DNA of 64,000 bases from an uncultured archaeon. GTDB lineage: Archaea; Nanobdellota; Nanobdellia; Pacearchaeales; GW2011-AR1. Position numbers and translations under genes: made by a program. Under the pieces are notes generated by a model, which was given only the letters and a program-made list of their open reading frames with translations, was not told the origin of the DNA and made no database searches. The stretch lies in NCBI GenBank assembly GCA_937143345.1, contig CAKZRD010000019.1, positions 9,116 through 73,115 on the forward strand. The letters are read 5' to 3'. Below are positions 10,496 to 43,062 of the stretch, piece by piece. Position 1 is the stretch's first letter. Every line of letters begins with the position of its first letter.

Positions 10496-10896
10496 ATAAA
10501 AGAGGGTGGATTAGAATAGTTGAGGCTCTTATAGCAGTCTTAATGATATTAGGAGCAATAATCTTTATTATAGATACGAATAATAAAAAGAATTACTCTG
10601 AAAAAGAAAATTATATTAACGATTTACAAAAAAATGTTCTTGATGAAATCTCAAACAATCTTGAATTACGAAATTTTGCACTGAGTAAAAATGAAAGTGA
10701 AATAAAAAAAAGAATTAGTGGATATTTTCCCGATTTTTATGAATTTGATGTTAGGGTATGCAACTTAACTGAAGATTATTGCCTTCTTCAAATATACCCG
10801 AACAAAAATATTTATGTTGCCGATAAGATAATCAGCGGAACATTAGAAGTTTATTCTCCGGTTAAAGTAAGAATTTTTTTATGGGAAAAGAAATAA
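10489..10896 (+). CDS. Type IV pilin-like protein with class III signal peptide
   Basis: N-terminus MVNKRG-WIRIVEALIAVLMILGAIIFII. Small (135 aa) and adjacent to the other pilin. Confidence 0.5.
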   Translation: MVNKRGWIRIVEALIAVLMILGAIIFIIDTNNKKNYSEKENYINDLQKNVLDEISNNLELRNFALSKNESEIKKRISGYFPDFYEFDVRVCNLTEDYCLLQIYPNKNIYVADKIISGTLEVYSPVKVRIFLWEKK

Positions 10897-21191: not shown

Positions 21192-21479
21192 ATGATAAAC
21201 TGGATTTTAATAATAATTGCTTTTTTAATAGTGCTTTCTTTTTTGAAAGTTGAACATTTTACAAGAATTTTTATTTTTATTTTATTATTATCTTTATTTT
21301 TATTTTTATTTTTTTCTTTTAATAAAATGATTAAAAGAGGCGAAATTTCTTTTGATTCTCCTCGTTCAACTTTAAATGCGTTTATAACTTATGGAAGATA
21401 CATTGAAAACGAGACAAAAAATATATTCAATACAACAAAAAAAGGAATAAATTTTGTTGGTGATGTTATAAGAGGTTAG
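21192..21479 (+). CDS. Small hypothetical membrane protein
   Basis: 95 aa with two predicted TM helices. No motif. Confidence 0.25.
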   Translation: MINWILIIIAFLIVLSFLKVEHFTRIFIFILLLSLFLFLFFSFNKMIKRGEISFDSPRSTLNAFITYGRYIENETKNIFNTTKKGINFVGDVIRG

Positions 21480-22003
21480 GATTTTATTTTCATTCCGATA
21501 GATATTTTGCCAAGTTCGCAAAAATTATAAACATATTCTTGGCTGTCTTTTATTTTCTTACAAATAGAAACATAGGAAGAGTATTCCATTTGTTGGGTTT
21601 GTTCTGGATTTTCATAAACCTTATAATAATTACATCCTAAAGAAGGGCATTCTTTCAATGTTGAAAAATTTCCTCCTATCTTAAAAATCCTTATCGAAGA
21701 TATAGGCCAAAATTCTGAATAAAGTTGATTTATTTCTTCTATCTTCATCACAAAAATTTTATCTTCATCAATACAAAAAGAGCTTCTTTCAGAACAAGAG
21801 AACTCCGGCAATTGGGAAAAAGATTCTAAAATGTTTAAAACTTGTTCTCTTTCTCTTTCTTGCGCGCTTGTCCTCATTTCTCCTAAAAAAACCTGTAAAA
21901 GAAAAAGCCCGACTAATGTAAAAAAGAAAAAAACTGCTAATATCATAAATGCCATTTGTTGAATTCTCATCTGAGATTTTTTCATTCCGACCATAGTTTG
22001 CAT
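21476..22003 (-). CDS. Small pilin-like/hypothetical protein with N-terminal hydrophobic helix
   Basis: MKKSQ-MRIQQMAFMILAVFFFF: a K/R-rich head then a hydrophobic helix. Last gene of the large minus-strand module. Confidence 0.35.
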   Translation of the reverse strand: MQTMVGMKKSQMRIQQMAFMILAVFFFFTLVGLFLLQVFLGEMRTSAQEREREQVLNILESFSQLPEFSCSERSSFCIDEDKIFVMKIEEINQLYSEFWPISSIRIFKIGGNFSTLKECPSLGCNYYKVYENPEQTQQMEYSSYVSICKKIKDSQEYVYNFCELGKISIGMKIKS

Positions 22004-22929
22004 TGTGTTCTCTCCTCCAATTCTTTTAATAGTTTAGAGATAGAATAAATTTCATCTATGTTTTTTGAATTAAAACATACATTTCTTAGTTCAATTAAAG
22101 TATCTTCTAAATTCGTAGGGCAATTTCTTGAAGACATTCTTTCTGATTTTTCTTTATAAATTAAAGAAAGAACTCCTGCTTTGTAAAGAATTCTTTTTAA
22201 GTTGCATTCATAAATTTCTTTATCTGAAAAAATTGCCGGATACAAAAAGTTTCCGACATAATCAATCCTTTCTCCTTCTTTTATGACAAAACCTTTTTCA
22301 TATTTGTCATCACACCATGATTCTATGCAATCACTTATTATTGTAATATCGCATTTGGTACCATAATTAAAACAAACCTTTATTGAATTTTTAGTACAAT
22401 TATCTTCTCCGAAAATTGCTTTATCTCCTAAAACTGAAATATGTGTTTTGAAAGAAGGAAGGTCCTCATAACCTTCAAGAAAACAAAACTCTCTCGAATC
22501 AATAATTAAAACATCTGTTACTTTGAAGCCGAAATTTATCGGAATGGAAAAAAAATAAAACTTTTTAGAAGGTTCTTTTGAAAAATAAATATATTTGTCC
22601 TTTATCGTTATTTCCTCTCCCAATATATTAAAATCCTCGTTTAAACCTCTTATTTGTTTTGCTGAAAGTTTTTGATAGCCGAAATTTGACGAATCACAGA
22701 AAGAGTCAAAAACAATCTCTCTTTTTGAAGATAATACTCCTTTTGAAGAAGATACGAAACCTGCTTGCATTGGGTCTAAAAAAACAGAAACTTGTTTTGT
22801 TAATTCTGTATCTTGATAAAATTTTATTGTTGTTCCTGTTCTTACTGCAGCATAAATCATTAAAACGAGAATTGCACTTCCTGCTAAAATTGCAAAAAGC
22901 CAAACAAAATTAAAATCTCCTTTTTTCAT
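21982..22929 (-). CDS. Pilin-like protein (class III signal peptide-like N-terminus)
   Basis: MKKG-DFNFVWLFAILAGSAILVLMIYAAV. 315 aa with a Cys-containing globular part. Confidence 0.4.
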   Translation of the reverse strand: MKKGDFNFVWLFAILAGSAILVLMIYAAVRTGTTIKFYQDTELTKQVSVFLDPMQAGFVSSSKGVLSSKREIVFDSFCDSSNFGYQKLSAKQIRGLNEDFNILGEEITIKDKYIYFSKEPSKKFYFFSIPINFGFKVTDVLIIDSREFCFLEGYEDLPSFKTHISVLGDKAIFGEDNCTKNSIKVCFNYGTKCDITIISDCIESWCDDKYEKGFVIKEGERIDYVGNFLYPAIFSDKEIYECNLKRILYKAGVLSLIYKEKSERMSSRNCPTNLEDTLIELRNVCFNSKNIDEIYSISKLLKELEERTQCKLWSE

Positions 22930-22958
22930 AAAGCTTAAAACAAAATATCTTATTTAAA

Positions 22959-23456
22959 TTATTCTATGATTACAAATTTATCATAAATTCTTTTTGTAAA
23001 CTTTAAGTTTTCTTCTGCATAAACGCAATAAGGGTTCTTTGATTTAATTATTTCATCTATTTTAATGCGATTTATTTTTTTATAAGGGATATTACAAGCA
23101 GAATTGTATGGTATCAAAAAAACATTAGCATCTTCAAATTCAAAATCTGCAATTTCTTCATAATCTTCTCTATTTGTTATTGTTGAAGATAAATTCGCAA
23201 AACAAACTTTTTCTATTTCTGAAGGAAGATTTATTTTAAACTCTTTATTCTCAACAGAAGAAGCATAAAAAACCTTATCAACTTCCCTTTGCAAAGAATC
23301 ATAAAAATTGCCTATTTGAGTGCATTTGCTTATTTTAAAAAATTGTCTTATTCCGAAAAAAGTAGCTCCTATAAAAATAATTATGAGGAAAATCGCGAAT
23401 ATAACTCCAAAGGACATACCCATCGGGCCTTCTTGTCCTTTTTTGTTTTTTTCCAT
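22959..23456 (-). CDS. Pilin-like protein (class III signal peptide-like N-terminus)
   Basis: MEKNKKG-QEGPMGMSFGVIFAIFLIIIFIGA. 165 aa. Confidence 0.4.
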   Translation of the reverse strand: MEKNKKGQEGPMGMSFGVIFAIFLIIIFIGATFFGIRQFFKISKCTQIGNFYDSLQREVDKVFYASSVENKEFKINLPSEIEKVCFANLSSTITNREDYEEIADFEFEDANVFLIPYNSACNIPYKKINRIKIDEIIKSKNPYCVYAEENLKFTKRIYDKFVIIE

Positions 23457-23566
23457 TTTTATGAAAAGAACTAAGAGTTTAAAAGAGTTTTTATCCTTCG
23501 GTGTAAGTTTTTTATAAAGAAATTATCTTCACTTCAAAAGGTCTCATTTGCTGATTGAAATTTAAC

Positions 23567-26500
23567 TTAAAATAAGAAGTTTTTCCTCGGTCTAACTATT
23601 AAAGAACAACCTATTGGCTCATTTCTAAATTCGTCTCTGCATTTTATATAATAGGTTTTTTCATTATCCCAAGCAGTAACATGGACAGGAGAATTTGAGT
23701 ATGGCATCAACGTTCCTTCCTCGAATAAATAATCACAACTTTCTGTTGAATAAACACAATCAGATCTTCTGAATGTGACTATTTTTAAATAATCATCTTC
23801 ATGATAAGCTCTTGCAATAACAGGGGAAAAGGTATCTATTTCAAGTTCAAATTGTGCTTCCGCTTCCGCCAAATTTCCTCCTCCGTCAATGCATTTAATA
23901 TAATATTTATGAACTCCGCTGAAAAGATCTAATCTTTGCTTGCTTACTCCATCTGCTTTGTTTGTGTCAAAGAAAGGAACAAAACTCTTTTGCTCTCCTG
24001 TAAAAGAATAGAAACAAGTAGCTTTGTTGTTGTCGCAACCGAAGAGAGTTTCAACAGTTAAATTAACTGGCATCGGAGAAATTCCTCCATATATCGTTAT
24101 GTTGTTTGGAGAAATTGACTTAATTTTTAAATGGTTTGAACCACGAACTTTATAATTGAATGAATTTGCCATTGTATTTCTTTCTTTTTCTGGCATTCCG
24201 GGATTGTCTTTGCATTTTATGTAGTAATCTGTGCCGTCTCTTTTTACTCCTGTCAGATTCGCCCTGCAAGTATATAATAACAATGAATTTATTTCAAAAA
24301 CATGTTGTGTGCAAGACATATTGTAAGTCATTTGTTCAAAAGTTCTGTCATTAAAATCCCATTTACATTCTGCAGGCTCATCTGTGTAAAACTCAACTAA
24401 TGAGTGATTTTGATCAGCTGTGACACAACTTCCGCTTTCAACAGAAACTGCTTTGATTTGTGGTGGTGTATTGTCTGGCTCATCATCTACACAAAACCTA
24501 ACAGAATAAGGAACAGTGTTTAGATTTCCTTTTGCATCTCTACACATTAAATAAAGAGTCATTTCTTTTCCCATTTCCAAAGTTAAAGAAGAATTTTTAA
24601 GATCTTTTGCTCTTGGAACATGAAGAATTTCTGTGAAATTTTTTCTGTAAGTGTTGTCTCCTCCCATAAAAGAAAGCATTTCTTCAAAAGAATTTTTCTT
24701 TTCTAAATCTATTTTGCATTGTGCTGGTTCGTTTGTTGTTACGCCAAATTGTATTGGTGAGAATGCTTTAATACATGCATTTAGTCCTTCTGTTCTTATT
24801 ATTTTAAAGCCAGGTCCTGGAGGAGAAGTCCTGACATCTGTGTATGTATAACCTTCTGTTAAAACTTCTTTCCATGGAGTAATTACTGGTGGGGAAACCT
24901 CTCTTGTGCTGTTATCAACACAAATTCCTCCTTTTTCTCCTTGACTAATAAAAGCACATGTTTGACCTAGAGATTTACAACGATATTCTGAACAAGGCAA
25001 TTGGTCGTGATTACACAACTCACAATCCTCTCCTCCGTGTGGCGCTTGCCAAGGAAGACATTTAAACTCTACTCGCTCTTCGAACTTTTCTGTTTTTTCA
25101 TAATTCTTAACATAATGATACCAGGCCACACCGACACCTATAGCTATTGGAACAAATTTTTCATAGAAACCTGCCCCTAATTTTTCACCAAAACTAAAAA
25201 ATTTATTTTTTGCTGCCAATTGAGCTAAACTTTTTTCTTCATTGGCAGATCCAAACCATTTAGCAGTCATAATTCCCCTCATAGTATTAAAAGAGGTAAC
25301 TCCGAAAAAAATTGCTTTTTTTATTGTCTCAACTTGCCCTTCATCTGTTCCAGCCATTTGTGCAACAAACCCTGCGAATTCTGAAACTACTTTTCCCCAT
25401 AAAAGACCTTCTGCTAAATGATAAACTGGCCAAAAAAAACTTTGGTTCTGGGTTATATTCCATCCCAATCCTGGAATTCTTCTTGGGGGATGATCGCCGG
25501 GAGGAAGGGTGGGTTCTACTTCTCTTCCGCCTACGCTACTCACCGCAGTTGGTGCTCCTGATGGTCCACTATTATGTACAAGCACTCCCTCGGCAAAAAA
25601 CCACTTTCCGCCCAAATCCAAATCATAAACATCTATTGGCTCATCTAAGACAACTTTCTCAATACTCTCAATAAAAACCTTCTCAGAATTTATTCCTTGT
25701 AAATAATCTCCGACAACCGCGTTCCCGATAGGTTGCCATTTTCCATTCAACAAAACCTCGTGATTAGGAGTAATCTCTAAAATTTTATTAACAATCAAAT
25801 ACTCGGATTTCCAAGAAACAATAACATCTCGAACAATTTCTTTAGTCAATTTCCCTGTTTCAAAATCATAAGATAAAACTTCTTCTCCTGGTTTTATGGA
25901 GGAGATGGGTTTTGTTGATAAATCTGCGAGTGAAATACTACTACTTAAACAAGTTCCTGGCGACTTAACTTCCTGAGTTTTACCACCCAAAATATCCTTT
26001 AAATAACTAGTGTCTTGAACAAGATTACCTTCCACCAAACTAAAAACCTTATTTGGATTTCCATCGTCTCCAAGAGAGTATAATGCAATAATTTTCTTGT
26101 CACTCCCTATAGAAATCCTATTAATTCCCTGAGAAACTGCCTGTCTATATAAATCGTCCGAAAGCAAATCTAAAAAATTAGCTTCCTGAATAGTATATTC
26201 TGTCGCATTAACCATCCACATCCCACCAATCAAATAAGCAAAGCTAACAACTCCAAGAACCAACATTCCAATCTGCATAAAGCCCAATCCTTTTTTATTA
26301 ATCATTTCCCCTAGTCTCTCTCTCTCGAGATTTAAATTTAGTTCTTCAAGCATTTCATCAGTTAAATATGTTCCATCGGATAGATAAGGAAGAGAGATTT
26401 GAGTTTTGGGGGAAAGACAATTATCTTTTAATCTTTCAGTTCGTGGAATCTTTGAAGAACCATCTATCGATAAAGATTCATAACTAAAAGCTTTTCTATT

Positions 26501-26725
26501 AATATCTACCAAATCTGCTGATTCATAAAAATCAAAAAGCCCTGTTTGTTGATTATAAAATGCTAAATAAACCTTATCTCCAATAATTACATCACCATGA
26601 TAACTTAACATCGATTCTTTTTCATTCGTACTCCCAATTCTAATAAACCAAACCATCGCAACAACAGACAAAACCAACATTAAAACAGAACTTACAGAAA
26701 AAATCTTCGCTATTTTGGTTTTCAT
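23567..26725 (-). CDS. Giant polytopic Cys-rich surface protein with an embedded Hint (intein-like) domain
   Basis: 1052 aa with an N-terminal TM and additional hydrophobic segments. The Hint domain begins CLSSSISLADL and ends VLVHN|S. The C-terminal part is clearly paralogous to the C-terminal half of the 1360 aa protein (shared ...PCSEYRCKSLG...TPWKEVLTEGY... and repeated YYI[KR]C.D..GN modules). Confidence 0.6.
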   Translation of the reverse strand: MKTKIAKIFSVSSVLMLVLSVVAMVWFIRIGSTNEKESMLSYHGDVIIGDKVYLAFYNQQTGLFDFYESADLVDINRKAFSYESLSIDGSSKIPRTERLKDNCLSPKTQISLPYLSDGTYLTDEMLEELNLNLERERLGEMINKKGLGFMQIGMLVLGVVSFAYLIGGMWMVNATEYTIQEANFLDLLSDDLYRQAVSQGINRISIGSDKKIIALYSLGDDGNPNKVFSLVEGNLVQDTSYLKDILGGKTQEVKSPGTCLSSSISLADLSTKPISSIKPGEEVLSYDFETGKLTKEIVRDVIVSWKSEYLIVNKILEITPNHEVLLNGKWQPIGNAVVGDYLQGINSEKVFIESIEKVVLDEPIDVYDLDLGGKWFFAEGVLVHNSGPSGAPTAVSSVGGREVEPTLPPGDHPPRRIPGLGWNITQNQSFFWPVYHLAEGLLWGKVVSEFAGFVAQMAGTDEGQVETIKKAIFFGVTSFNTMRGIMTAKWFGSANEEKSLAQLAAKNKFFSFGEKLGAGFYEKFVPIAIGVGVAWYHYVKNYEKTEKFEERVEFKCLPWQAPHGGEDCELCNHDQLPCSEYRCKSLGQTCAFISQGEKGGICVDNSTREVSPPVITPWKEVLTEGYTYTDVRTSPPGPGFKIIRTEGLNACIKAFSPIQFGVTTNEPAQCKIDLEKKNSFEEMLSFMGGDNTYRKNFTEILHVPRAKDLKNSSLTLEMGKEMTLYLMCRDAKGNLNTVPYSVRFCVDDEPDNTPPQIKAVSVESGSCVTADQNHSLVEFYTDEPAECKWDFNDRTFEQMTYNMSCTQHVFEINSLLLYTCRANLTGVKRDGTDYYIKCKDNPGMPEKERNTMANSFNYKVRGSNHLKIKSISPNNITIYGGISPMPVNLTVETLFGCDNNKATCFYSFTGEQKSFVPFFDTNKADGVSKQRLDLFSGVHKYYIKCIDGGGNLAEAEAQFELEIDTFSPVIARAYHEDDYLKIVTFRRSDCVYSTESCDYLFEEGTLMPYSNSPVHVTAWDNEKTYYIKCRDEFRNEPIGCSLIVRPRKNFLF

Positions 26726-26901
26726 TTCTTCACCTCTTTAATTATTTGTTTTAATAAAGGAACTTTTTTAATTAACAACCGTGATTTATGAAAATTCGCC
26801 ATCTGATAATAAAATAAATCCTTATTCATATTAAACCTTAGAGCTTGTTTTTTTATTTTTTAATAGTAGAATAATTATTTCGAATGTTATGTTCTTTCTA
26901 G

Positions 26902-29211
26902 TCATCTTTTCTCCTCTACAATAAATTTAATTCCTGTTCCATAATCTCCGAGTGAAAGCCCTTTTTTTGAACTCCCGCCAGAAACAATTCGTTCTGGAAG
27001 ATCTTTTCCAGAAATTTTTTCCCATAGTTTTTGAGAGAAAGATTTTTCTTCTTTTATTTTTTCGTATTTAATTTCTTGAGGAAAACTTAATTTTTCAACT
27101 TTGACCTCTTCCCCATCCCTAGCAATGATTAAATCACCTTTTTTTAATTCCTCTATTTGTTTTAAAGAATATTTTTCTTCGTTTTTTAGCAGAACAAAAC
27201 TTCCTTTATTTATTTCTATTTTATCATTGATTAAAATTTTGTTTTTATTTTCCTTTATAACGAAAGCTGTTCCTCTTTTAGCGTGGCCTTGGTTTATTCC
27301 ACCTAATAAACTAAATGAAGAATTTTTATATTTCCAAGAATATCCATCGTCGGTATATTTGTCATTTATATTTACATTTGCCCCGCAATCTCCGATAGAT
27401 GTACAAATCGCATTTACTTTTTTAGCCCAATCTGCTTTAGGTATAAGCGAATATTCTTTTGAATTTCCAGAGGGTGCTTTTCCGCCTTCCCATTCTAAAC
27501 ACTCGCTTTCAATCTCTATTCCGCTTTCATTAATCATCTTGAAATTATACTCTTTATCTCCAAAAGGTCCAGCTAAACTTTCGTATTTTTCAGTTCTTAA
27601 TATTGTCACCTTACAAACAGCACTTGCTATCTCGCAATTCCCTTGTCCAAGCCAAAATTTATTACCTGGGGGGATTAAAGGAACACAAATTCCTCCCTCG
27701 TCTTCCTCGCTTTTATTGAATTTTGTAACTTTGTTTAAAATATCATAATCAAATTCCCAAATTCCTTTTCCGCTTGAAACAAAAGGTGCTAAAGCATTTG
27801 TTGTTATAACTTTTCCTGCCGACATGGAACCGAAAGCACTGGATGCTTGTTGTGCTAAACCTATTCCTTGCATTGCGTTATCAAAACCTGATTGTTTGCT
27901 TGTTGGATTTTGAAATTGCGAAAAAGAATTTGAAAAAGAAGATTGCTGTTTATTCCAATTTAATCCCTCTACATCATCAATCCAAATACAATCTCTTACA
28001 TCTATATTTTCACAATCTCTCTTTCTCCATTGCTGAACACAATCTTGCCATCTATTTACTCTACAGGCAGCAGTTGAAAATTCTCCAGAAGAAGTTTGGA
28101 TTCCTGAATGTATGCAAATTTGGTTTCTAAAATCAGCACAAGGGTCACTAACGACTTCCCCGTCTATACAAATTTGTCTAAAATGCCTTGAACCAGCTTT
28201 TTCATAGCCCTTTCCTGGCTCTATATCATAAACACACCAGCTCTCACCATTTATTCTTGTTTTTCCACTCATGTCTTTACAGGTTGTTCTTTTACAAATA
28301 AATTCTCCTTCTTTCCCTAGATTTGTTTTCTTCCCATCTTTGCTTGAACAAATACTTCCTAAAAGATAATCACAATTTCCGCAAGAAGTACTTCCGTCAT
28401 TACGAGGACAAATAGTATCTGGGTCTGCAACTCTACCTTTATTCCAGGACTTATCTTTGTTTGAAGAATAAACATTCTCCCTGTTCCCGCAAGAGTCAAA
28501 CCAATAAACTTTTCCTTTGTAGCAACCAACATAATTTTGTCTGGCACATTCTGTATTTAATTCTTCAGCAGAACAAAGAACATTTTTATAAAATTTTTTT
28601 CCTGTTTCTTGCTCTAAAATTGATTTGTTTACATTTAAAGCGATAACTCCATCTCTTGCTCCGCAATCTTTTCTCGTCGTAAATTTACACTCATTAACTC
28701 CTGTTCCTGTATAGGTAACACAAGCCCCCATATCTTGCCCGTTGGCTAAAAAAATACATTCTGATTCGTCAGTTACAGATGTCTTAAACTCCATCGTTAT
28801 TCCAAAGTATGTTGAAAGTTTTTTACATCTTGCTAAAGTAACTAAAGCAGCTTGGTCTGAAATTAAACAACAACCTAGACGACAAGTTGGAAGTTCTGAA
28901 GCAGATTTCTCACTCCAAGTTCCGTTTCTTTCTTGACAGATTTTTTGTGGAACATTTTCCATACAAATTCCTTCCTTTGTGTCATAACAAGTTCCCGTTT
29001 TACAGAAAGAGGTCTGCGCACAAGAAGAAGGAGCTATTCTGAAAGAAGAATCACATTCATTTTCTTGCGCGTTTAAACAAAATCCTCCACTTTTTGTTTT
29101 CTCGCAACAAAAGGAAGGAACAGAAATTATTGCAGAAGAAAAACTAATAAAAAAAAATAAAAATAATAAAAATATTGTTTTATTCATGGATATTCTCCTG
29201 CTGCTGGCCAA
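26902..29211 (-). CDS. Secreted Cys-rich protein
   Basis: 769 aa with a signal peptide. Paralogous to the N-terminal half of the 1360 aa protein: shared CCxxTKxGxxC, GCC motifs, CGNCDY..GSICS, GESWCVYD, GSRHF. Confidence 0.6.
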   Translation of the reverse strand: MASSRRISMNKTIFLLFLFFFISFSSAIISVPSFCCEKTKSGGFCLNAQENECDSSFRIAPSSCAQTSFCKTGTCYDTKEGICMENVPQKICQERNGTWSEKSASELPTCRLGCCLISDQAALVTLARCKKLSTYFGITMEFKTSVTDESECIFLANGQDMGACVTYTGTGVNECKFTTRKDCGARDGVIALNVNKSILEQETGKKFYKNVLCSAEELNTECARQNYVGCYKGKVYWFDSCGNRENVYSSNKDKSWNKGRVADPDTICPRNDGSTSCGNCDYLLGSICSSKDGKKTNLGKEGEFICKRTTCKDMSGKTRINGESWCVYDIEPGKGYEKAGSRHFRQICIDGEVVSDPCADFRNQICIHSGIQTSSGEFSTAACRVNRWQDCVQQWRKRDCENIDVRDCIWIDDVEGLNWNKQQSSFSNSFSQFQNPTSKQSGFDNAMQGIGLAQQASSAFGSMSAGKVITTNALAPFVSSGKGIWEFDYDILNKVTKFNKSEEDEGGICVPLIPPGNKFWLGQGNCEIASAVCKVTILRTEKYESLAGPFGDKEYNFKMINESGIEIESECLEWEGGKAPSGNSKEYSLIPKADWAKKVNAICTSIGDCGANVNINDKYTDDGYSWKYKNSSFSLLGGINQGHAKRGTAFVIKENKNKILINDKIEINKGSFVLLKNEEKYSLKQIEELKKGDLIIARDGEEVKVEKLSFPQEIKYEKIKEEKSFSQKLWEKISGKDLPERIVSGGSSKKGLSLGDYGTGIKFIVEEKR

Positions 29212-29951
29212 GGATAGCTCCTCACAGCGAAGTTAAATTTAATTTTCTCATTTTTTTCTATGACTGAATAAACCTTAACTTCATTATCTGTTCTTGTCTT
29301 TAAAATTTTTATGTTTGGATAAAAAAACATTTGTTGCATTTGTTCGCTATCTCCGTAATATGTTTCAAATTGAATTAAAGACGTTGCTATCATCAAAACT
29401 TCGTAAAGATTTGTTTTGAAATTATAACTTAAGTTTTTAATTGAGGAAGAAGATTCTCCGTGTGAAATTTTTGCTGGAGCGTTTATCTTAATTTTGATTT
29501 CTTTAGGTTCTATTGATACAGAATAAGAAATTTCTCCTTCTTCAACATCTATTCCTCTTCTTTTTAACTCACTTATAGATTTTTTATAACATTTTTCAAA
29601 ATCTTCTTTAATTAATTCTTTCAGTGATTCTTCAAACCTATCTTTTAAAAAAGGTTCTTGATTAACGCAAGGTGTTAGATATTCGTTTGTGTAACATAAG
29701 AAAGTATAATTTTCTCCTTTATAAAAATGAACAAATTTTGGCTCTAAAAATCCTGCTGTTTGAGCAAGAGATTTTATTTTTTTAGAAAGGCTATCATCTA
29801 GACAGCTCTCAAAACTTCTACTAAAACCAAGCGGTAAAGTTAAACCTCTTATAAATTCTGGTTTAAAATAATAAAAAAGAAAAAAAATGCTGAAAATGAA
29901 GATTAACCCAAGTATTATAAATAAAGTAACTTGTCCCCTTTTATTCTCCAT
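29184..29951 (-). CDS. Small membrane-anchored protein with class III (pilin-like) signal peptide; paralog of 34065..34829
   Basis: MENKRG-QVTLFIILGLIFIF has Gln at +1 after K-R-G. 255 aa. Similar length, N-terminal motif and position to its paralog. Confidence 0.45.
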   Translation of the reverse strand: MENKRGQVTLFIILGLIFIFSIFFLFYYFKPEFIRGLTLPLGFSRSFESCLDDSLSKKIKSLAQTAGFLEPKFVHFYKGENYTFLCYTNEYLTPCVNQEPFLKDRFEESLKELIKEDFEKCYKKSISELKRRGIDVEEGEISYSVSIEPKEIKIKINAPAKISHGESSSSIKNLSYNFKTNLYEVLMIATSLIQFETYYGDSEQMQQMFFYPNIKILKTRTDNEVKVYSVIEKNEKIKFNFAVRSYPWPAAGEYP

Positions 29952-29985
29952 TTTTTTAAAAAGAAAATTAGGTTTATAAATTCTT

Positions 29986-32900
29986 TTATAAATTAATAGG
30001 TTTAATTATTGCTGAGCATTGATTTAAAATGTTTAGTTTTTTGTCTCTGCATCTTATATAATAAGTTTCATAAGGATATGCTGTAAAGTTATGTGATCTT
30101 GATAAGTATTTTATTTCACTCGGAAGTTCATAGTTACAAAGAGTTGTTTTGTTTGTATTATAAAAGCATTCTGCTTCCTCGTCTGTTTCTAAAGAAAGTT
30201 TTCCATCTTTGTATAAAGCTCTTTGTATTAAAGGAGGAGTTTCATCAAAGAATACTGAAAAGTTAAAAGTTTCTTCTGCAATATTTCTTGCTTCGTCTTC
30301 ACATTTTACATTGATTGAATAATTACCTTGTGGAAACGTGAGTAATTGATTATGTTCTGTTTTACCTGTTTCAAAGAAATTTATGAACGAAGAAGAAAAT
30401 CCGGGGACATTGTAAGAGCAAAATGCGTTTCCTATGCATCCGAAAGTTCTAACAGAAAGAGTGAAATTTTTTTCCTCTATTAAATTTTTTCTATTTAACA
30501 AAGAAATATTTAATCCATCTTTACAAACATTTAAAACATATTCTTTGCTTACAAAATTAATATTTCTTTTATAATATTCTGTTTCTTCTTTTAAATTTGG
30601 TTGGTCATTACATCTAAAATAAAAAGTGTTTTTCCCTTCTGTTAAATTATCAATCTTTGTAAAACAAGTCCATTCTCCGAGGAAAACGCTTTCTTGTGAA
30701 GTTAAACAAGTCATATTGTTAGACATATCATAGAAACCTTCATTTCCGCTAACTACATCATACTCTTTAACAAAACGGCATTCTGCTGGCTCGTTAAGAT
30801 AAAGAATTACGGATGTTGAATTTGTTCCTTTTTTCAAATAAATCCCATTTGGAGGATTAAATCTTCTTAATTCAGCAGGAGTTAGGTCTGGACCTTGTTT
30901 AACTTTAACTTGAACGACAAATTCTGCTTCATTAACTTGACCTGCAAAATTTAAACATCTTATATAATATTCATTTTCTTCTCCGATTGTTAAACCAAGA
31001 GTATTTTTAGATGCGTTTTTGTCTTTTAAAAAACCGGAAAGTGTTATTTTGTGAGTTAATCCATCAGATTTTCCTGTTTCTGGATTAATATCTGAAATCA
31101 TCTCGAATTTCATTTCATCATAGCTTTTTGTGTGTTCATAATCAATCCTACAAGTTGCTGGTTTGTCAGTTTTTATTCCGAAAGTTAAATCTCCCCAAGC
31201 TTCTATTCCTTCGCCGTTTTTTCCAGCAATTCTAAATCCACTATCTCTTACATTTATATAAGAGTAACCTTCTGTTAAAACTTCTTTCCAAGGAGTTATT
31301 TTTGCTTTCCATATCTCGCTTATAGAATAACAATATCCTGGTTCTCCTTTCTCAATAAAGTAATGACAATTGCTTCCCAGTGATTTACATCTGTATTCAG
31401 AGCAAGGTCGGACGTCGTCGTTGCAAATATCGCAGTTTCCATTTTTTGGTGGTTGCCATGCTTCGCATGAGAAAGACATTATGTAATATTCGTATTCATC
31501 AAAACTATCGTCAAAACAATTTTTATACACTGAAGTAGAGATAGCAGCAACGACGGCTACAGCACAGACAGGATTTATAAAACCAGTCGCCCCACAAATG
31601 GTGCCAGTCAACTTAAGAATAACAACGGTTGCTGAGACAAAAACAGTAGACATTGCGGCCATCAAACCCTCGATAAACTTCCTTTCTAGTCCAGGACTCC
31701 AATTTTGATTCTTAGCAATAAGCTTTCCAAGCTGATATCCAACATAAGACCCAATTATTGCTGTGGCTGCCAAGGTTAAACCAGCTTTTAAATTCATCAG
31801 CCAGTTTGGATTTGTAACAGTCGTACTAACTTTTCTAGTTAAACCTAAATATTTCTGAAGCCCATCTAAAAAGGTAGATCCTGTCTCAAAAAAAGGAACA
31901 GTGCTAGTAGTTGTGACGGAAGTTGTTGTTAGGGCCTTCCAACCACCCATCGCCAATCCTGCCATAGTTAATGGCCCAGCAAAATTAACAATTTCCTGCA
32001 AAGAACTAGAAGAGCTTCCAACACTCACGCCCTTAGAGAGTTCATTTAAATCTATAGTTGTCTTATTTATATCACCAGCAGTCCAGGCACTATCTGCAAT
32101 ATCCGCAGACAAACCGGAGGAGATAGATTTGAGATCATTTAATTTTTTAAAAGAAGCAATGGGTTTTTTAAAAGAAGCAATGTAATCTCCTGGAAGAGTA
32201 TAATTACTAATTGAAATATTCCTATTCTCCCCCTTCCTGTCTATCTTGATTCTTTGAACAGAGAAGCCCGGAAAATCTTCATTGACTTCTCCAATTATAT
32301 TTGAAGAAACACCACAACTTCCCAACGCCCTACATCGCTCATTCATTGCAGACATGAGATTAGGTAGATCTTTTGTCTTTATATTAACATTTGCTCCATC
32401 GATATTGCACTCCCAATTTGCTTCATCTTCCCATGGATCGCAGTCTACATCTTCTGGATTTATTAGTTCTGAGATCCCATAAGAATAAGCACAGAGTGTA
32501 GTACTTATCAATCCCTTCAATTGAAGATTGGTCTCATCGACCATCTGGCATTTTCTTTTTACACTAGATATGCAAGTAAAACTCCCCAAACTACAAATTG
32601 CATTTGTTTCTTCATTGCTTCCACCATAATTTGCTGTGGAGAATTGTTTTTGTTTTTGAGAAGGATTATAGGAATCTGAACCTCTTCCTACAATTTTAGT
32701 ATTGGTATTCCAAAATTGAAAACCTGGAGTAAATCTTGGAACACAATGAGCTAAAAGTTTATTTTGGTCTTTTCCTAAATCATCTATTGCACCTTGTTCT
32801 GCATTTGTTTTTTCTGGATCAAAACCTGCAAGAAATTTACCGTCACTTCTTTTTAATTTATCTTCACCATAAAATTCGTTAAACATAATGCATTGTGGGT

Positions 32901-34068
32901 TTTCTTCGCATTTCTTTTCAACTTCAGAATAAGACTCAGCATCATTTGCATTGAGACAACTTCTCCAATCGTTTATTAAGCATTTTGCCTCAGTGTAACC
33001 TGAATCAGTATTTTGAACACAGATTTCTTGCATGAAATCAGCACACCCCTCTATAGAAATTTGACCCTCGAAACAACGAGCAATAAAATGTCTAGAACCT
33101 ACCGGAGCAATTCCTTCTAACGGATTAAAGTCATAAACACACCAGCTTTCCCCGTGCTTTTTGTTGTTGCAATGCAAGCTTTTGCAAACATAATCTCCTA
33201 ACGAAGGTTTTTGCGTTTTTCCTTTCTCGTATTTTGCACAAATACTTCCTCTAACATAATCGCAATTTCCACACGACGGACTTTCAGGAGAACAAGATTC
33301 TTCTGGAGGAATTGGTTTTTCCCAATAGGTTTGATTGTTTGCTTTGGAAGAATCATAAATGTTTGCTACATTACCACAGGAATCAAGAAAATAAACTTGA
33401 TCTCTATCTTCGACACATGTTGTTTTATTAGTTGGTTTACATATTGTGTTTAATTCTTTTGATGTACATAAATAACCTGGTTTAAAATCTCCTGTTTTAC
33501 AATTTTTTTTTGAAGTATAAACGCAGTTTTTTTCTCCTGAAAAATCCCCTGAATCTGAAAGACACGCTCCTAACTCTTCTAAACCGATATATTTTTCACA
33601 ACTTTCCCCACTCGAAAAAGGAATAAATTTTTTTTCAAAATTATATTTATTCGAAAGAAGAGTACACTCTCTCGAATTAACTAAAGAAACTTGGTTTCCA
33701 AGGATACAACAACCTAATTGACATTGTGGAATGTTGCATGAAATATCATCGCTCCAATTCCCTCCATTTTCTAAACATTTTTGTTTTGGCGACCTTAAAG
33801 AGCAAGTTCCTGTAGAAGAAGAATAACAACAACCAAGTTTGCATTCACCTACTGAAGAGCATTTTGTGGCAAATAGGTTTTCCTTACACAAATCTGCTTG
33901 AAAAAAAGGAATATCTTGGCAAATGGCTCCTTCTTTTGTTTCTCTACAGCAGCCTTTGAATGAGTCGGTTTGTGCGGAAACTAATTCTCTTTCTGAAATT
34001 AAATAGGCAAAACTAAATATTGCTAAAATCAATATTAAAATTTCTAAAAAAGCAATTTTTTTTTTCAT
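29986..34068 (-). CDS. Giant (1360 aa) Cys-rich surface/membrane protein, fused version of the 769 aa + 1052 aa pair
   Basis: Signal peptide. N-terminal Cys-rich region paralogous to the 769 aa protein. Central multi-TM hydrophobic region. C-terminal repeated beta-rich modules ending YYIRC.D..N, paralogous to the 1052 aa protein. No Hint domain. Confidence 0.6.
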   Translation of the reverse strand: MKKKIAFLEILILILAIFSFAYLISERELVSAQTDSFKGCCRETKEGAICQDIPFFQADLCKENLFATKCSSVGECKLGCCYSSSTGTCSLRSPKQKCLENGGNWSDDISCNIPQCQLGCCILGNQVSLVNSRECTLLSNKYNFEKKFIPFSSGESCEKYIGLEELGACLSDSGDFSGEKNCVYTSKKNCKTGDFKPGYLCTSKELNTICKPTNKTTCVEDRDQVYFLDSCGNVANIYDSSKANNQTYWEKPIPPEESCSPESPSCGNCDYVRGSICAKYEKGKTQKPSLGDYVCKSLHCNNKKHGESWCVYDFNPLEGIAPVGSRHFIARCFEGQISIEGCADFMQEICVQNTDSGYTEAKCLINDWRSCLNANDAESYSEVEKKCEENPQCIMFNEFYGEDKLKRSDGKFLAGFDPEKTNAEQGAIDDLGKDQNKLLAHCVPRFTPGFQFWNTNTKIVGRGSDSYNPSQKQKQFSTANYGGSNEETNAICSLGSFTCISSVKRKCQMVDETNLQLKGLISTTLCAYSYGISELINPEDVDCDPWEDEANWECNIDGANVNIKTKDLPNLMSAMNERCRALGSCGVSSNIIGEVNEDFPGFSVQRIKIDRKGENRNISISNYTLPGDYIASFKKPIASFKKLNDLKSISSGLSADIADSAWTAGDINKTTIDLNELSKGVSVGSSSSSLQEIVNFAGPLTMAGLAMGGWKALTTTSVTTTSTVPFFETGSTFLDGLQKYLGLTRKVSTTVTNPNWLMNLKAGLTLAATAIIGSYVGYQLGKLIAKNQNWSPGLERKFIEGLMAAMSTVFVSATVVILKLTGTICGATGFINPVCAVAVVAAISTSVYKNCFDDSFDEYEYYIMSFSCEAWQPPKNGNCDICNDDVRPCSEYRCKSLGSNCHYFIEKGEPGYCYSISEIWKAKITPWKEVLTEGYSYINVRDSGFRIAGKNGEGIEAWGDLTFGIKTDKPATCRIDYEHTKSYDEMKFEMISDINPETGKSDGLTHKITLSGFLKDKNASKNTLGLTIGEENEYYIRCLNFAGQVNEAEFVVQVKVKQGPDLTPAELRRFNPPNGIYLKKGTNSTSVILYLNEPAECRFVKEYDVVSGNEGFYDMSNNMTCLTSQESVFLGEWTCFTKIDNLTEGKNTFYFRCNDQPNLKEETEYYKRNINFVSKEYVLNVCKDGLNISLLNRKNLIEEKNFTLSVRTFGCIGNAFCSYNVPGFSSSFINFFETGKTEHNQLLTFPQGNYSINVKCEDEARNIAEETFNFSVFFDETPPLIQRALYKDGKLSLETDEEAECFYNTNKTTLCNYELPSEIKYLSRSHNFTAYPYETYYIRCRDKKLNILNQCSAIIKPINL

Positions 34069-34829
34069 ATTCCTGCTGGCATCACACAGGTACGAATTGC
34101 AAATTTAATTTCTTTATTGTCTAAGGACTTTAAAGTATAAACTTTTGTTTGATCACCACCCCTAAATCTTTCAATTTTAACATTTCTGTTGAGAGCTTGC
34201 CATATCATAAAATCGAATTCACAAAATGAGCTTTCGTAATTATTTATTGCTTCAGCAGTTCTTAATAAATAAGGAAGAGAAGATTTAACTTTCCCATTTA
34301 AAGAAGAAACAGAAAAAGAAGTTTCTCCTTTAGATATTTTTATTTCTGATTTTAAGTTATAAGAAATTTGTTGTTCCTCGAATATTAATTCAAACAAAAA
34401 AGAATCGTATTCAAAAGAATATCCTTTATTTTCATAATCTTCTTTTAAAATTAAAATTGCCCTTGATAAATCTCTAGAAATTTTATTCTCCATTTTTTTT
34501 CTTATAGATTCAATAAAAAGCGGGGATTGTTGAACGCAAGGAAAATAAAATTCTGTCGAATAACAAGAAAAGGGAACTTTTTCTTCCTTGTATAAATAAA
34601 AAATCTTAAACTCTTCTAAAAATCTTTTTTCCTTAAAGAAGTCTTCTTCATTTTGTTTTATAGAGTTTTCAATACTTCTTTTTATTAATAAATTGGGATC
34701 AGAAGAAGGTCTTTTAAAAAAAGAAATATCTTTGTTAAACAAAAAAAGAAAAAGAATTAAACCAGAAATTAAAACACCTGAAACAATAAAAATTGAAATT
34801 TGTGCTCTTTTTTTAAAAAAAAATTTCAT
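34065..34829 (-). CDS. Small membrane-anchored protein with class III (pilin-like) signal peptide; paralog of 29184..29951
   Basis: MKFFFKKRA-QISIFIVSGVLISGLILFLFLF. 254 aa. 4-nt overlap with the downstream giant gene. Confidence 0.45.
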   Translation of the reverse strand: MKFFFKKRAQISIFIVSGVLISGLILFLFLFNKDISFFKRPSSDPNLLIKRSIENSIKQNEEDFFKEKRFLEEFKIFYLYKEEKVPFSCYSTEFYFPCVQQSPLFIESIRKKMENKISRDLSRAILILKEDYENKGYSFEYDSFLFELIFEEQQISYNLKSEIKISKGETSFSVSSLNGKVKSSLPYLLRTAEAINNYESSFCEFDFMIWQALNRNVKIERFRGGDQTKVYTLKSLDNKEIKFAIRTCVMPAGI

Positions 34830-34849: not shown

Positions 34850-35449
34850 CTATTTAAAACTATCCTTAAAATATCTTTTTATTAAATAATAAGGAAGGCC
34901 AAAAAGGACTATTCCCGGAACAATGGCTATACCTAGTCCTGGAGCAAGAGTAGACACTCCTATAGTCGATAATGTTCCAACTCCAACGCTCTCTAAAAAA
35001 GTATTTGCTTTTTTAATTTTTTTCTCGACATTTTTTTCCAAAGCATCTATCTGAGCAACGATTTTTCCTGCTCTGAAAATTTTTATTTTTTTTTCTTCTT
35101 GAGAAACTAAAATACAAAAGCTGTCTTTAATTAAAGAAGCAGAATAAGCTGCGGCGTGTCTTGTTCCATAACCTGTAAAAACTTTTTTTGATTCTATTTT
35201 CGCTCCGTAATCTAAAACATTCCCTTCTTTATTAATAACAACTGCCCCATCGATAATAGCTAAAGAAAGGAGAATTTTCTTTGCTCCAGGACTAAAAATA
35301 GAAAAAGATTCAAATTTTTGTTTTAACAATCTTTTATATTTACAATTGTCAGAAATAACAAATAATGCTCCTTCCCCTTTTCTCGCAACCTCAATACCGA
35401 CTGAAATTAGGACTTCCTCAATTTTTTTTAAAAGATTTTCTTTTTTCAT
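34850..35449 (-). CDS. Diadenylate cyclase (DAC/DisA_N domain) with C-terminal hydrophobic anchor
   Basis: DAC motifs IDGAVVINKEGNV and GYGTRHAAAYSAS, then CILVSQEEKKIKIF. The C-terminal 40 aa are hydrophobic (GVGTLSTIGVSTLAPGLGIAIVPGIVLFGLPYYLI). Confidence 0.8.
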   Translation of the reverse strand: MKKENLLKKIEEVLISVGIEVARKGEGALFVISDNCKYKRLLKQKFESFSIFSPGAKKILLSLAIIDGAVVINKEGNVLDYGAKIESKKVFTGYGTRHAAAYSASLIKDSFCILVSQEEKKIKIFRAGKIVAQIDALEKNVEKKIKKANTFLESVGVGTLSTIGVSTLAPGLGIAIVPGIVLFGLPYYLIKRYFKDSFK

Positions 35450-35481: not shown

Positions 35482-36201
35482 TTAATCGTTGTCTACTCTC
35501 GGAGCAAGAATAAATGAAATCCCCAATCTATCTCCTGCAAAAATAAGTTTTAATGGATAATTATCTGAAAACATTATTTTTATTTTGTCAGAAATTTTAG
35601 AAGATTTTATAAATTTCATTAAATATTCTAAAGAGTATTTTGCTTTTGCTTCCCCTTTAAATTTGTATTCTTCAGAAAACTCGACTTTAACTGAACTTAA
35701 ACTTCCTTTTGCTTCAATTTTAAAAAGTCCTTCTTTTGAAATAAAAGAACAAGAATCTGCAACAACATAACAGTCCTCTATCGTCTTAGAAAATTCTTGA
35801 GAAGAAATTTCTCCTTCTGTTGAAAATTCTAAATTCGGTTCTTTTTTTTCTTCGATATCATTATCAATTAAAGAAAGATTAAATATCCTCTTCGAAGAGT
35901 CTTCGGACGAAATTTTTAAAATATTTTCTTCTTGTTCAAAGTCGATGGTTGGGGAATTGTAAGCTCTTTTCAAAATTCTTTTAAAATCTTCAAGGTTTAT
36001 TGAAAGCTCCTCGTTTTCCACCTCATAAAATGAAAAACTCTCTTTTGGCATTTTGAAAATAACCATTGCCACATTTGCAGGGTCAACAGCAACTAAAAAC
36101 AAACCATCTTCTAAAAATTTTAATTTTACTTCTACAACAAGTTCAGAAATTATGTTTATTGCATCAATAAAATTTTTTGGATTTTCTAGTCTAACTTTCA
36201 T
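35482..36201 (-). CDS. pcn: DNA polymerase sliding clamp PCNA
   Basis: 239 aa in two-domain PCNA layout. N-terminal MKVRLENPKNFIDAINIISELVVEVKLKF is characteristic of archaeal PCNA. Acidic C-terminus. Confidence 0.85.
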   Translation of the reverse strand: MKVRLENPKNFIDAINIISELVVEVKLKFLEDGLFLVAVDPANVAMVIFKMPKESFSFYEVENEELSINLEDFKRILKRAYNSPTIDFEQEENILKISSEDSSKRIFNLSLIDNDIEEKKEPNLEFSTEGEISSQEFSKTIEDCYVVADSCSFISKEGLFKIEAKGSLSSVKVEFSEEYKFKGEAKAKYSLEYLMKFIKSSKISDKIKIMFSDNYPLKLIFAGDRLGISFILAPRVDND

Positions 36202-36279: not shown

Positions 36280-37761
36280 ATGGAAAAAGAAAGCAAAATA
36301 AAATTAGTTTATTTAGGTTATTATTCAAGAAAAGAAATAAAAAAAACAATATTTGAGTTTTGTAAAAAAAGAGAAACGATACCTAAGTATTATGATTTTT
36401 TTGGAAAAAGACCTGACAGATTAGAATATGAAGATGATGTTTATAATCTTGCAAAAAAAGGAGCTACTAGTTTTCATTGCTCTCAGGAACTTTGGGGAAA
36501 TCCACTTAATATAAAAACGGAAAAAAATTTAAATGAATTGAGGGAAGGTTGGGATTTTTTAATAGATATAGATTCAAAATATTTTGATTATGCGAAAATT
36601 TCTGCTAAAATAATAATAAATGCTTTGAAATTTCATGGAATAAGAAATTTTGGGATCAAATTTTCAGGATCCAAGGGCTTTCATATAATCATTCCTTGGA
36701 AAGCATTCCCCGAGGAATACGATGGAGTAAAAACAAAAAACATGTTTCCTGAATGGCCAAGAATAATTGCAAAATATCTTCAAGAAGAATTTATTAAAAA
36801 GAACTTAGAAAGTTATATTGAAAAAAATGCAAAAGAAGATTCTCCTAAGGAAATTTTTTACCTTCCAACTAATGAAAAAGCACTTGAAGGTTTTTTTTAC
36901 GAATTTGTTTGTGAAAAATGTAAAACAAAGATTACTTCTTTCTTCGATAAAAAAACAAAAAAAAGAGTTTTTAAATGTTCTGTATGCAAAGGTTTAATTA
37001 AAAAAATTAAAGAAGAAAAAATTTATTTTTCTCCAGACAAAAAATTCAATTCTATAAAGAATAAAGAAATGTTTAAAGAAAAGATTAATAATCAAAAAGA
37101 TCTTAATTGTGTTGATTTGGTTTTGGTTGCACCAAGGCATTTGTTTAGAACACCTTATTCTCTTCACGAAAAAACCTCTCTTTGCTCCTGTGTTTTAGAA
37201 GAAAAAGATTTGGAAAATTTCTCACCTAACGACGCGAAACCAGAGAATATAAAAATAAAAAATTTTTATCCTATAGCGAAAGAAGAAGAAGCAAAGAAGC
37301 TTTTGATAAATGCTCTTGACTGGGAAAAAAGAAAAGAAAAAAAAGATTATACTTTAAAAGAAAAAAAAGAGATTGATTTAAGTGGAATAAAAATTGATGA
37401 GAGTTATTTTCCTCCGACGATATTAAAAATTCTTCAGGGGATAAAAGAAGATGGGAGAAAAAGAGCTTTAACTATACTACTTTCTTTCTTTGTTTCTTTA
37501 AATTTGTCTAAAGAGTATATAGAAGAAAAAATTAATGAATGGAATAAAAAAAACTATCAACCGTTAAAAGAAGGTTATATTAACTCGCAGATAAGTTGGT
37601 TTTTAAAAAATAAAAGATTACCACCGAACTATGATAGGTCAATTTACAAGGAATTAGGGGTTTTAGAAGAAACGGAAGGTTTTAAAAATCCAATTAATTA
37701 TACTATAAGTAAAATATTAAAAAAAGAGTTACAAATAAAGAATAATAAAAAAATAAAATGA
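36280..37761 (+). CDS. priS: DNA primase catalytic subunit PriS with C-terminal helical extension (PriL-CTD/PriCT-like)
   Basis: Catalytic Asp motif WDFLIDIDSKY. SGSKGFHIIIPW (the SGxRGFH signature). Zn knuckle CEKCK...CSVCKG. The C-terminal ~150 aa (ILQGIKEDGRKRALTILLSFFVSLNLSKEYIEEKINEWNKKN) resembles a primase C-terminal helical domain without an Fe-S Cys cluster. Confidence 0.75.
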   Translation: MEKESKIKLVYLGYYSRKEIKKTIFEFCKKRETIPKYYDFFGKRPDRLEYEDDVYNLAKKGATSFHCSQELWGNPLNIKTEKNLNELREGWDFLIDIDSKYFDYAKISAKIIINALKFHGIRNFGIKFSGSKGFHIIIPWKAFPEEYDGVKTKNMFPEWPRIIAKYLQEEFIKKNLESYIEKNAKEDSPKEIFYLPTNEKALEGFFYEFVCEKCKTKITSFFDKKTKKRVFKCSVCKGLIKKIKEEKIYFSPDKKFNSIKNKEMFKEKINNQKDLNCVDLVLVAPRHLFRTPYSLHEKTSLCSCVLEEKDLENFSPNDAKPENIKIKNFYPIAKEEEAKKLLINALDWEKRKEKKDYTLKEKKEIDLSGIKIDESYFPPTILKILQGIKEDGRKRALTILLSFFVSLNLSKEYIEEKINEWNKKNYQPLKEGYINSQISWFLKNKRLPPNYDRSIYKELGVLEETEGFKNPINYTISKILKKELQIKNNKKIK

Positions 37762-43054: not shown

Positions 43055-43062
43055 TAAAAAAC

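Follow-up and report, generated by a model that had tools for sequence, protein, structure and literature searches.

This report concerns a module of eight genes, g1 to g8, at positions 21476-34829 on the minus strand of a 64,000-nucleotide stretch (the window) of contig CAKZRD010000019.1 from an uncultured archaeon (NCBI GenBank assembly GCA_937143345.1, positions 9,116 to 73,115). Eight co-oriented, tightly packed genes for pilin-like small proteins and giant cysteine-rich membrane or surface proteins had been proposed here in an earlier, sequence-only reading of the window, and both the eight open reading frames (ORFs) and their packing are borne out. In the direction of transcription, they are g1 (34065..34829, 254 aa) and g2 (29986..34068, 1360 aa), i.e. 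the prepilin-type partner and the fused giant of a first unit (A); g3 (29184..29951, 255 aa), the prepilin-type partner of a second unit (B); g4 (26902..29211), which is 769 aa long from a TTG codon and 761 aa long from the ATG at 29187 used in the public annotation; g5 (23567..26725, 1052 aa), the membrane-bound C-half of unit B; and the small prepilin-type genes g6 (22959..23456, 165 aa), g7 (21982..22929, 315 aa with 11 cysteines), and g8 (21476..22003, 175 aa, or 169 aa from an internal ATG). The stop of g1 and the start of g2 overlap by 4 nt, as do those of g3 and g4 if g4 starts at the ATG, and g7 and g8 also overlap. The public record additionally annotates a 35-aa ORF between g4 and g5. 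The G+C content of the window is 25-36%, for which we estimate about 0.08 stops per random codon; since 769-1360 open codons could not arise by chance at this composition, the giant ORFs are real. An identical locus is present in contigs of independent samples (NCBI GCA_036733025.1, JGI 3300010288, and JGI 3300025104), which excludes assembly chimerism. The proposed source, a reduced archaeon of the DPANN group, was also confirmed: the DNA is Pacearchaeota-like, and the homologues come from metagenome-assembled genomes (MAGs) of such organisms. A scan for sigma-70 promoters and terminators gave no signal above the shuffled expectation, the sigma-70 model being uninformative for an archaeon. 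The eight genes constitute one real, conserved operon, which is co-inherited and translationally coupled and encodes exported and membrane proteins.

The giants had been described as tandem duplicates. The three large proteins are not parallel paralogues, however, but make up two units, of which one is a fused chain and the other is split. Residues 40-372 of g2 match residues 35-392 of g4 (32% identity, E 1e-55), and residues 827-1357 of g2 match residues 517-1046 of g5 (32% identity, E 1e-63), so that g4 and g5 together are the split counterpart of g2. These matches indicate that the module contains two ancient paralogous giant units, with A encoded as the single chain g2 and B as g4 plus g5. 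The split N-halves share 51% mean identity between genomes vs. 39% to the fused paralogue of their own genome, and in 102 of 111 cases the closest sequence from a different locus is of the same class (split or fused). The split N-halves thus form an orthologous group, and the split is ancient and maintained rather than the trace of a pseudogene.

The g2 protein starts with an N-terminal hydrophobic signal or anchor helix with VSA|Q behind it, and continues with a cysteine-rich N-domain of about 600 aa (residues ~35-650; 32119..33966). This domain, the head, comprises three CC-containing beta-beta-alpha-beta modules of ~40 aa each and then a beta-rich core. The motifs CCxxTKxGxxC, CGNCDY, and GESWCVYD, listed previously as recurrent in the giants, were all found in both g2 and g4, whose cysteine content is 5.1-5.3%. 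A variable, Ser/Thr-rich linker and a Gly/Ala-rich hydrophobic region follow (residues ~695-848; 31525..31986); the latter most likely forms four membrane segments, the count found most often in the family. Next come a juxtamembrane Cys module (31324..31473) with near-invariant columns (C-x2-W-x2-P...C-x2-C-N...P-C-S-E-Y-R-C-K-S-L-G...C) and four immunoglobulin (Ig)-like beta-sandwich repeats of ~100 aa each (29989..31311) with the pattern [DN]EPAxC ... YYIxCxD..GN. The repeats of two homologues, P0094 (34.3 bits) and P0062 (27.8 bits), exceed the cutoff of the Pfam model Big_13 (27), over the last third of the model only, while other homologues score just under it; the motif touched is Y-x-I-x-C-x-D-x-A-G-N. 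Among the Pfam Ig-like models, g2 itself matches Big_3_3 at E 0.075 and nothing else. The two cysteines of a repeat are separated by a median of 53 residues, a spacing that would fit an Ig-type cross-sheet disulfide.

The split chains divide this anatomy between them. The g4 protein has a signal peptide, the Cys-rich N-domain, and a charged C-terminal tail, and lacks a membrane anchor, while g5 has one or more N-terminal hydrophobic segments, a hypervariable linker, a Gly-rich transmembrane (TM) region, the Cys module, and four Ig-like repeats. The expectation that the giants carry signal peptides or TM helices therefore stands, with the restriction that internal TM segments are found only in g2 and g5 and that g4 has a signal peptide alone. 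Residues 1-141 of g5 (26303-26725, minus strand) form an N-terminal extension with an extra TM helix and ~115 further aa, which is missing from the orthologue in locus L004 and is encoded as a separate 143-aa ORF in locus L082; the gene boundary at the start of g5 either shifts in the course of evolution or has been placed too far out, with the real start codon inside the ORF.

None of the eight proteins reached the threshold of any Pfam or NCBIfam model, so the cysteine-rich domains remain, as had been stated, unrecognisable as a known family. The giants gave no confident match to ordinary surface-layer (S-layer) or enzyme families in these collections, and PDB sequences matched neither g2 nor the profiles of two family alignments. 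No structural relative of the head was found among solved or viral structures, and no homology to the C-terminal beta-propeller or the N-terminal vWA domain of PilY1 was detected in the giants. Identity with a fusexin, a HAP2 class II fusogen, or a viral fusogen was rejected, there being no similarity in ectodomain fold.

One domain of g5 had been overlooked in the sequence-only reading. Pfam matches and motifs identify a Hint or mini-intein-like domain in the hypervariable linker (25568..25951; residues 259-386, 127 aa plus the +1 Ser), in which the canonical splicing residues are all present (Cys1, TPNH, VYDLDL...FAEG, and VHN|S). The Pfam matches of g5 are sub-threshold (Intein_splicing, E 1.4e-3; PT-HINT, 3.4e-3; and Vint, 5.5e-3), and those of the L082 orthologue exceed the thresholds (PT-HINT, 31.9 vs. 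27.7; Vint, 29 vs. 27). The C...TPNH...VHN|S residues are kept in all three lineages that carry the domain. Its distribution is sporadic, with occurrence in 5 of the 84 loci surveyed (see below), and it lies in the hypervariable, length-variable linker; it is absent from the top 120 homologues of g2, and the variable linkers of nine other C-halves contained no recognisable domain except Hint. A classical intein was rejected because the insertion lies in a hypervariable linker rather than at a conserved site. This sporadic placement in the hypervariable linker of a surface protein instead makes the domain similar to bacterial intein-like (BIL) domains, with which it shares Cys1, TxxH, HN, the +1 Ser, and a position in the hypervariable part of an exported protein; it differs in being archaeal, and to our knowledge a BIL-like Hint domain is unusual for an archaeon. 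A split intein joining g4 and g5, suggested by a visual likeness of the g4 tail to a Hint N-fragment, was likewise rejected: comparison of the g4 tail with the Hint domain gave an hhalign probability of 18%, and Pfam found nothing in g4. The tail of g4 is a 'junction' domain of ~130 aa (26905..27294; K+E 31%; ELKxxKxxELKxGDxIIDxDGxEI), the location of which varies. It stands at the C-terminus of g4, in a separate signal-bearing ORF in two loci (L005, 21525-21914; L007, 17198-17608), and at the N-terminus of the C-half in L060 (8076-10802).

Class III-type N-termini had been noted in three small proteins, and we found five: g1, g3, g6, g7, and g8. In all five families, a short basic N-terminus ending in Gly, Ala, or Ser precedes a hydrophobic helix of ~20 residues. 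Each giant unit is indeed preceded by a paralogous partner of ~255 aa, g1 and g3 sharing 27% identity (E 1e-19). The g1 protein begins with KKRA|QISIFIV, followed by a globular alpha/beta domain with 4 Cys, and g3 begins with NKRG|QVTLFIILG; the consensus of this partner family is [KR][GAS]-Q-[VIL]-[TS]-[IL]-F-[IV]-I, in which Q(+1) and F(+5) are invariant. The corresponding N-termini are [KR]GQ...SFGMIFSIILI in the g6 family, KKGFEFSFAWLFAIIAGA in the g7 family, and [KR][GA]QLKIQQMAFMLLAV in the g8 family. Profile comparisons by hhalign linked g6 to g7 (96% probability) and g1/g3 to g8 (88%), with the similarity confined to the N-terminal helix, as is usual among pilins. The predicted model of g3 comprises an N-terminal helix of ~60 residues and an alpha/beta head.

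The module is widespread in related genomes. In a scan of species-representative genomes (one genome per species), relatives were encoded in at least 485 stretches, and the best 80 of these all derive from Pacearchaeota, Woesearchaeota, or Nanoarchaeota MAGs. In addition, 518 homologues of g2 were identified in MAGs of Pacearchaeota, Nanoarchaeota, or unclassified 'archaeon' origin; nearly all are full-length (1200-1430 aa), and every one is annotated as 'hypothetical'. A profile of the partner family matched 8,321 clusters (50% identity) among 1.8 billion representative proteins, including 4,670 clusters at E<=1e-10. For gene order, ORFs were called in 84 loci and classified by phmmer. The order [partner][fused N+C giant][partner][N-half][C-half][g6][g7][g8] was found in at least 25 loci of sufficient reach, and a g1/g3-family gene adjoins an N-domain gene in 81 of the 84. 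The g6 and g7 families were each found in 35 of these loci and the g8 family in 32. In a few genomes the second unit is fused instead of split (L027, L030, L035, and L073), and a few others possess three units (L005, L013, L014, L022, L033, and L063). This recurrent order, together with the number of relatives, can be attributed neither to chimerism nor to chance; absence from related genomes, which had been named as a sign of chimerism, was thus ruled out. The module is specific to two DPANN orders, Pacearchaeota and Woesearchaeota.

Conservation is unevenly distributed along the giants. The mean pairwise identity is 51% in the core of the head and highest, at 58%, in the juxtamembrane Cys module, and falls to 23% in the linker and TM region, where the giants vary most; both orders share an invariant cysteine framework in the head. 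No description of the module was found in the literature. Castelle et al. 2021 (PMC8204110) define a 'Module 98' of 51 families specific to Pacearchaeota and Woesearchaeota, mostly without assigned function. The families of this operon have the same phyletic pattern and may well be among them, although the paper gives neither gene-cluster architecture nor structures for them. The DPANN family cls.004306 (NEQ255), described by Makarova et al. 2019 as a 'secreted protein next to Ig-like S-layer-like proteins', is by this description a candidate for what g1 and g3 could be. The putative secretion system arCOG01314 (Makarova et al. 2015) was rejected as an identity for the module because its gene set is different, and no DUF4350 membrane protein, MoxR-type AAA+ ATPase, or vWA protein was found in the module or among its conserved neighbours.

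Several properties bear on the location of the giants in the cell. Cysteine makes up 4-8% of both big domains. Lys and Glu together account for ~14% of residues in C-half and N-domain alike vs. 22% in cytoplasmic proteins of the same genome, whereas Ser, Thr, Asn, and Gly account for ~31% vs. 20%, and both domains are net acidic. N-glycosylation sequons occur at 1.54 per 100 aa in the C-half vs. 0.41 in cytoplasmic proteins. Between the domains there are most often four hydrophobic segments in fused giants and two in split C-halves, both even numbers. Based on composition, sequon density, and even TM counts, we favour a topology in which both large domains are outside the cell. Family-wide, sequons are depleted in the head (observed/expected 0.47) and slightly enriched in the Ig-like repeats (1.17); in g2, this contrast between 32119-33966 and 29989-31311 suggests a bare head on a glycosylated stalk. 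No hydrophobic segment was found after residue 60 in any of 66 split N-halves. Heads of the g4 type thus lack an anchor and would need a docking partner that holds them non-covalently, for which the adjacent, translationally coupled partner protein is the obvious candidate.

The reading that we prefer, and hold tentatively, is that the operon builds a multi-subunit, prepilin-anchored surface complex analogous to minor-pilin/PilY1 modules. Each giant unit would have its own coupled prepilin-type partner (g1 or g3), and the trio g6-g8 would be shared. The giants would be exported by the Sec pathway and kept in the membrane through bundled Gly-rich helices, with the disulfide-rich head and the stalk of four Ig-like domains both outside the cell. 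Each of the five small proteins would be cleaved behind [KR][GA] by a class III signal peptidase, after which their N-terminal helices could assemble into a short stem or platform rooted in the membrane, much as minor pilins and pseudopilins prime type IV filaments, cap them, and carry the non-pilin adhesin PilY1. This platform would dock the anchorless N-half and array the heads on the surface, where their target may be a ligand, itself conserved, of a partner cell or on a surface.

The closest parallels are the minor-pilin/PilY1 (fimU-pilVWXY1E) and GspH-I-J-K systems. Both likewise comprise differing prepilin-type proteins that are alike only in the N-terminal helix, together with a co-encoded, Sec-exported, large (>1000 aa) non-pilin protein, in an operon apart from the ATPase and platform locus. 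Tip subunits such as GspK lack the Glu at +5, and the small subunits of the module resemble them in this respect. Neither PilY1 nor any minor pilin is homologous in sequence or fold, and the giants of the module differ from PilY1 in having TM segments and in being duplicated or split; in contrast to type IVa pili and the type II secretion system, the module is archaeal rather than bacterial and lacks a major pilin. In the bindosome of Sulfolobus, class III signal peptides serve to anchor and organise non-filament, sugar-binding surface proteins at the membrane; the module differs from it in containing no substrate-binding-protein domains and no linked Bas-type ATPase or membrane protein. The Epd pilins of Methanococcus maripaludis also resemble the small proteins in their short, Gly/Ala-ending signal and Gln at +1, the latter, after a Gly-ending signal, being a hallmark of EppA-processed Methanococcus pilins (PMC3875500). 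In Methanococcus, pilin genes normally lie apart from the locus with the ATPase and two platform genes (PMC3875500), and a similar scattering is seen in the window, where two T2SSF platform genes (8210-9055 and 9057-9866, plus strand) lie ~11 kb from the module. They are followed on the same strand by two ORFs with canonical class III signals (9905-10495, MKRG|FSHIEIV; 10489-10896, MVNKRG|WIRIVEAL) and by an ATPase gene (10921-12231) that matches HerA, DUF87, Zot, and TrwB and is not of the T2SSE type. Two-platform 'system 1' loci of type IV filaments have been reported in DPANN archaea (bioRxiv 10.64898/2026.04.22.720090). The small proteins differ from the Epd pilins in being much larger (165-315 aa) and Cys-containing, in giving no match to the Pfam class III signal model, and, in g1 and g3, in the replacement of the +5 Glu.

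A number of observations weigh against this reading. The link to minor-pilin/PilY1 or GspH-K systems is one of functional analogy, and several of their defining features are missing from the module. The five small proteins show no clear pilin head fold, and none reached a curated Pfam or NCBIfam pilin or class III signal model (Class_IIIsignal/DUF361, N_methyl); g8 gave a sub-threshold match to PilX_N (E 0.04, 14.3 bits vs. a cutoff of 25.5), and the other four gave nothing. The invariant Phe at +5 of g1 and g3 takes the place of the Glu found in assembling pilins. With their TM segments, the giants, unlike PilY1, cannot ride on a long filament, and the positive-inside rule leaves their topology ambiguous. 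No homologue of the T2SSF or ATPase genes of the window lies within 10 kb of the module in any other locus surveyed, and no peptidase A24 (prepilin peptidase) gene was found among the window ORFs scanned.

The serious rival to a prepilin-anchored complex is an S-layer-type lattice, in which Ig-like stalks would carry disulfide-rich caps, and the two units would be hetero-oligomeric, with the small proteins as anchors or assembly factors. We consider it rather unlikely on balance. Several solved archaeal S-layer proteins are built as arrays of Ig-like domains, and the C-half is such an array with a raised density of sequons. Like the SlaA/SlaB-type S-layer, the module consists of large exported proteins with tandem Ig-like repeats, many sequons, and membrane anchoring, and its two large proteins with membrane anchors loosely recall SlaA and SlaB. 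A near-universal presence and strong conservation in two orders would also suit a cell wall, as would the housekeeping neighbourhood: in 44 of 84 loci, the gene for PCNA (35482-36201, minus strand, in the window) is found directly upstream of the module and co-oriented with it. However, the cysteine-rich head, the internal multi-TM anchoring, and the five prepilin-type partners set the module apart; prepilin-type subunits take no part in any known S-layer. The eight proteins match no known S-layer family model in Pfam or NCBIfam. An invariant Cys content of 5% and 40-58% identity across orders would be unusual for S-layer proteins, which normally evolve fast. Moreover, another large secreted protein of a family without a Pfam match is encoded in the window (79-2706, minus strand; 875 aa, with a signal peptide), and this protein is itself a possible S-layer candidate; separately annotated S-layer genes have been recorded in Woesearchaeota transcriptomes (PMC11606122).

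The sequence-only reading took the module for a candidate cell-cell attachment or host-interaction system. In the form of an apparatus for host-specific attachment or membrane fusion, with heads that would single out a given host cell and perhaps fuse with it, this appears improbable. The DPANN lifestyle, the large, exported, Cys-rich ectodomains, and the hypervariable linker of the C-half, whose occasional Hint domain has parallels in variable surface proteins of bacteria, are what such an apparatus would lead one to expect. The heads, however, are among the most conserved parts of the giants, not the most variable, and they are nearly invariant across Pacearchaeota and Woesearchaeota, whose hosts are presumably diverse. 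A fast-evolving adhesin that confers host specificity under diversifying selection would not usually have ectodomains this conserved. Least probable of all is a conduit for uptake or exchange, in which the Gly-zipper-like TM bundles of the giants would come together as a channel, with the prepilin-type proteins serving as a pseudopilus-like piston in the manner of type II secretion and competence systems, for the import of DNA, nucleotides, lipids, or other host-derived material that reduced cells cannot make: its Gly-rich TM helices (with a weak Gly-zipper match in one homologue), its five pseudopilin-like proteins without a major pilin, the reliance on salvage (form III RuBisCO in the window; Castelle et al. 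2021), and the ComEA-like helix-hairpin-helix protein of the window are all in keeping with this idea, but the giants have just 2-4 TM segments per chain at 23% identity, the opposite of a conserved channel, no ATPase is linked to the module in other loci, and there is no similarity to ComEC, secretins, or transporters. The poor conservation of the TM region and the high conservation of the heads thus make both the conduit and the host-specific adhesin or fusogen less likely than a prepilin-anchored surface complex.

Other genes surround the module in the window. Upstream of PCNA, and divergent from it, a primase-like gene (36280-37761, plus strand) is present in 40 of 84 loci. The stable link across two orders between a replication gene, PCNA, and a surface-protein operon is unexpected. 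Between PCNA and g1 lies a gene (34850-35449, minus strand) whose product combines a diadenylate-cyclase (DAC) domain and a hydrophobic C-terminus; a DAC gene occupies this place in only five closely related loci. Two exported proteins of unknown family are encoded in the conserved neighbourhood, next to the primase-like gene on the plus strand. The first, p631 (37758-39653), which is conserved in 22 loci, has a signal peptide, prenyltransferase/terpene-cyclase-like repeats (a weak SQHop_cyclase_C match), a segment rich in cysteine (30 Cys), and a TM helix, and its tail is Pro-rich. In the second, p413 (39688-40929), a signal peptide is combined with a TM anchor at the C-terminus. Both were considered as relatives of the module proteins and rejected for lack of homology. 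The ComEA-like protein (58243-59106, minus strand) contains tandem helix-hairpin-helix (HHH_3) domains and, judging from these, is possibly an extracellular DNA-binding receptor; locus L004 has a similar gene ~8 kb upstream of the module. The gene for the large subunit of form III RuBisCO (60971-62455, minus strand) fits the nucleotide-salvage metabolism of Pacearchaeota (PMC8204110). An apparently broken gene for a class II aminoacyl-tRNA synthetase was found at 43054-44343 on the minus strand, and an intact paralogue is present at 56147-57610. The broken copy encodes a 224-aa N-terminal fragment (the anticodon-binding domain and the start of the catalytic domain), which is followed in the public annotation by pieces of 77, 49, and 55 aa.

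Few uncultivated archaea are as widespread as Pacearchaeota and Woesearchaeota, with their tiny, metabolically dependent cells, and this operon is one of the few large, lineage-wide, and clearly co-functional gene sets in their "dark matter", on which they spend ~13 kb of a genome of <1 Mb. It offers several handles: a predicted processing site after [KR][GA] that would leave an N-terminal Gln, the predicted subunit pairs g1-g2 and g3-g4, and confident predicted models for antibody work or for fitting into cryo-electron tomography maps. A bolder possibility, which we hold to be less likely than not but give a substantial chance, is that the module represents a new kind of envelope machine, with disulfide-rich heads, Ig-like stalks, and five prepilin-derived subunits that form no filament and have no dedicated pilus motor. 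Such a machine would be either the cell wall itself or an organelle for contact and exchange with partners, and would be lineage-defining for Pacearchaeota and Woesearchaeota. If prepilin-type subunits do organise non-filament giants in these cells, the archaeal roles of the type IV filament superfamily would be widened.

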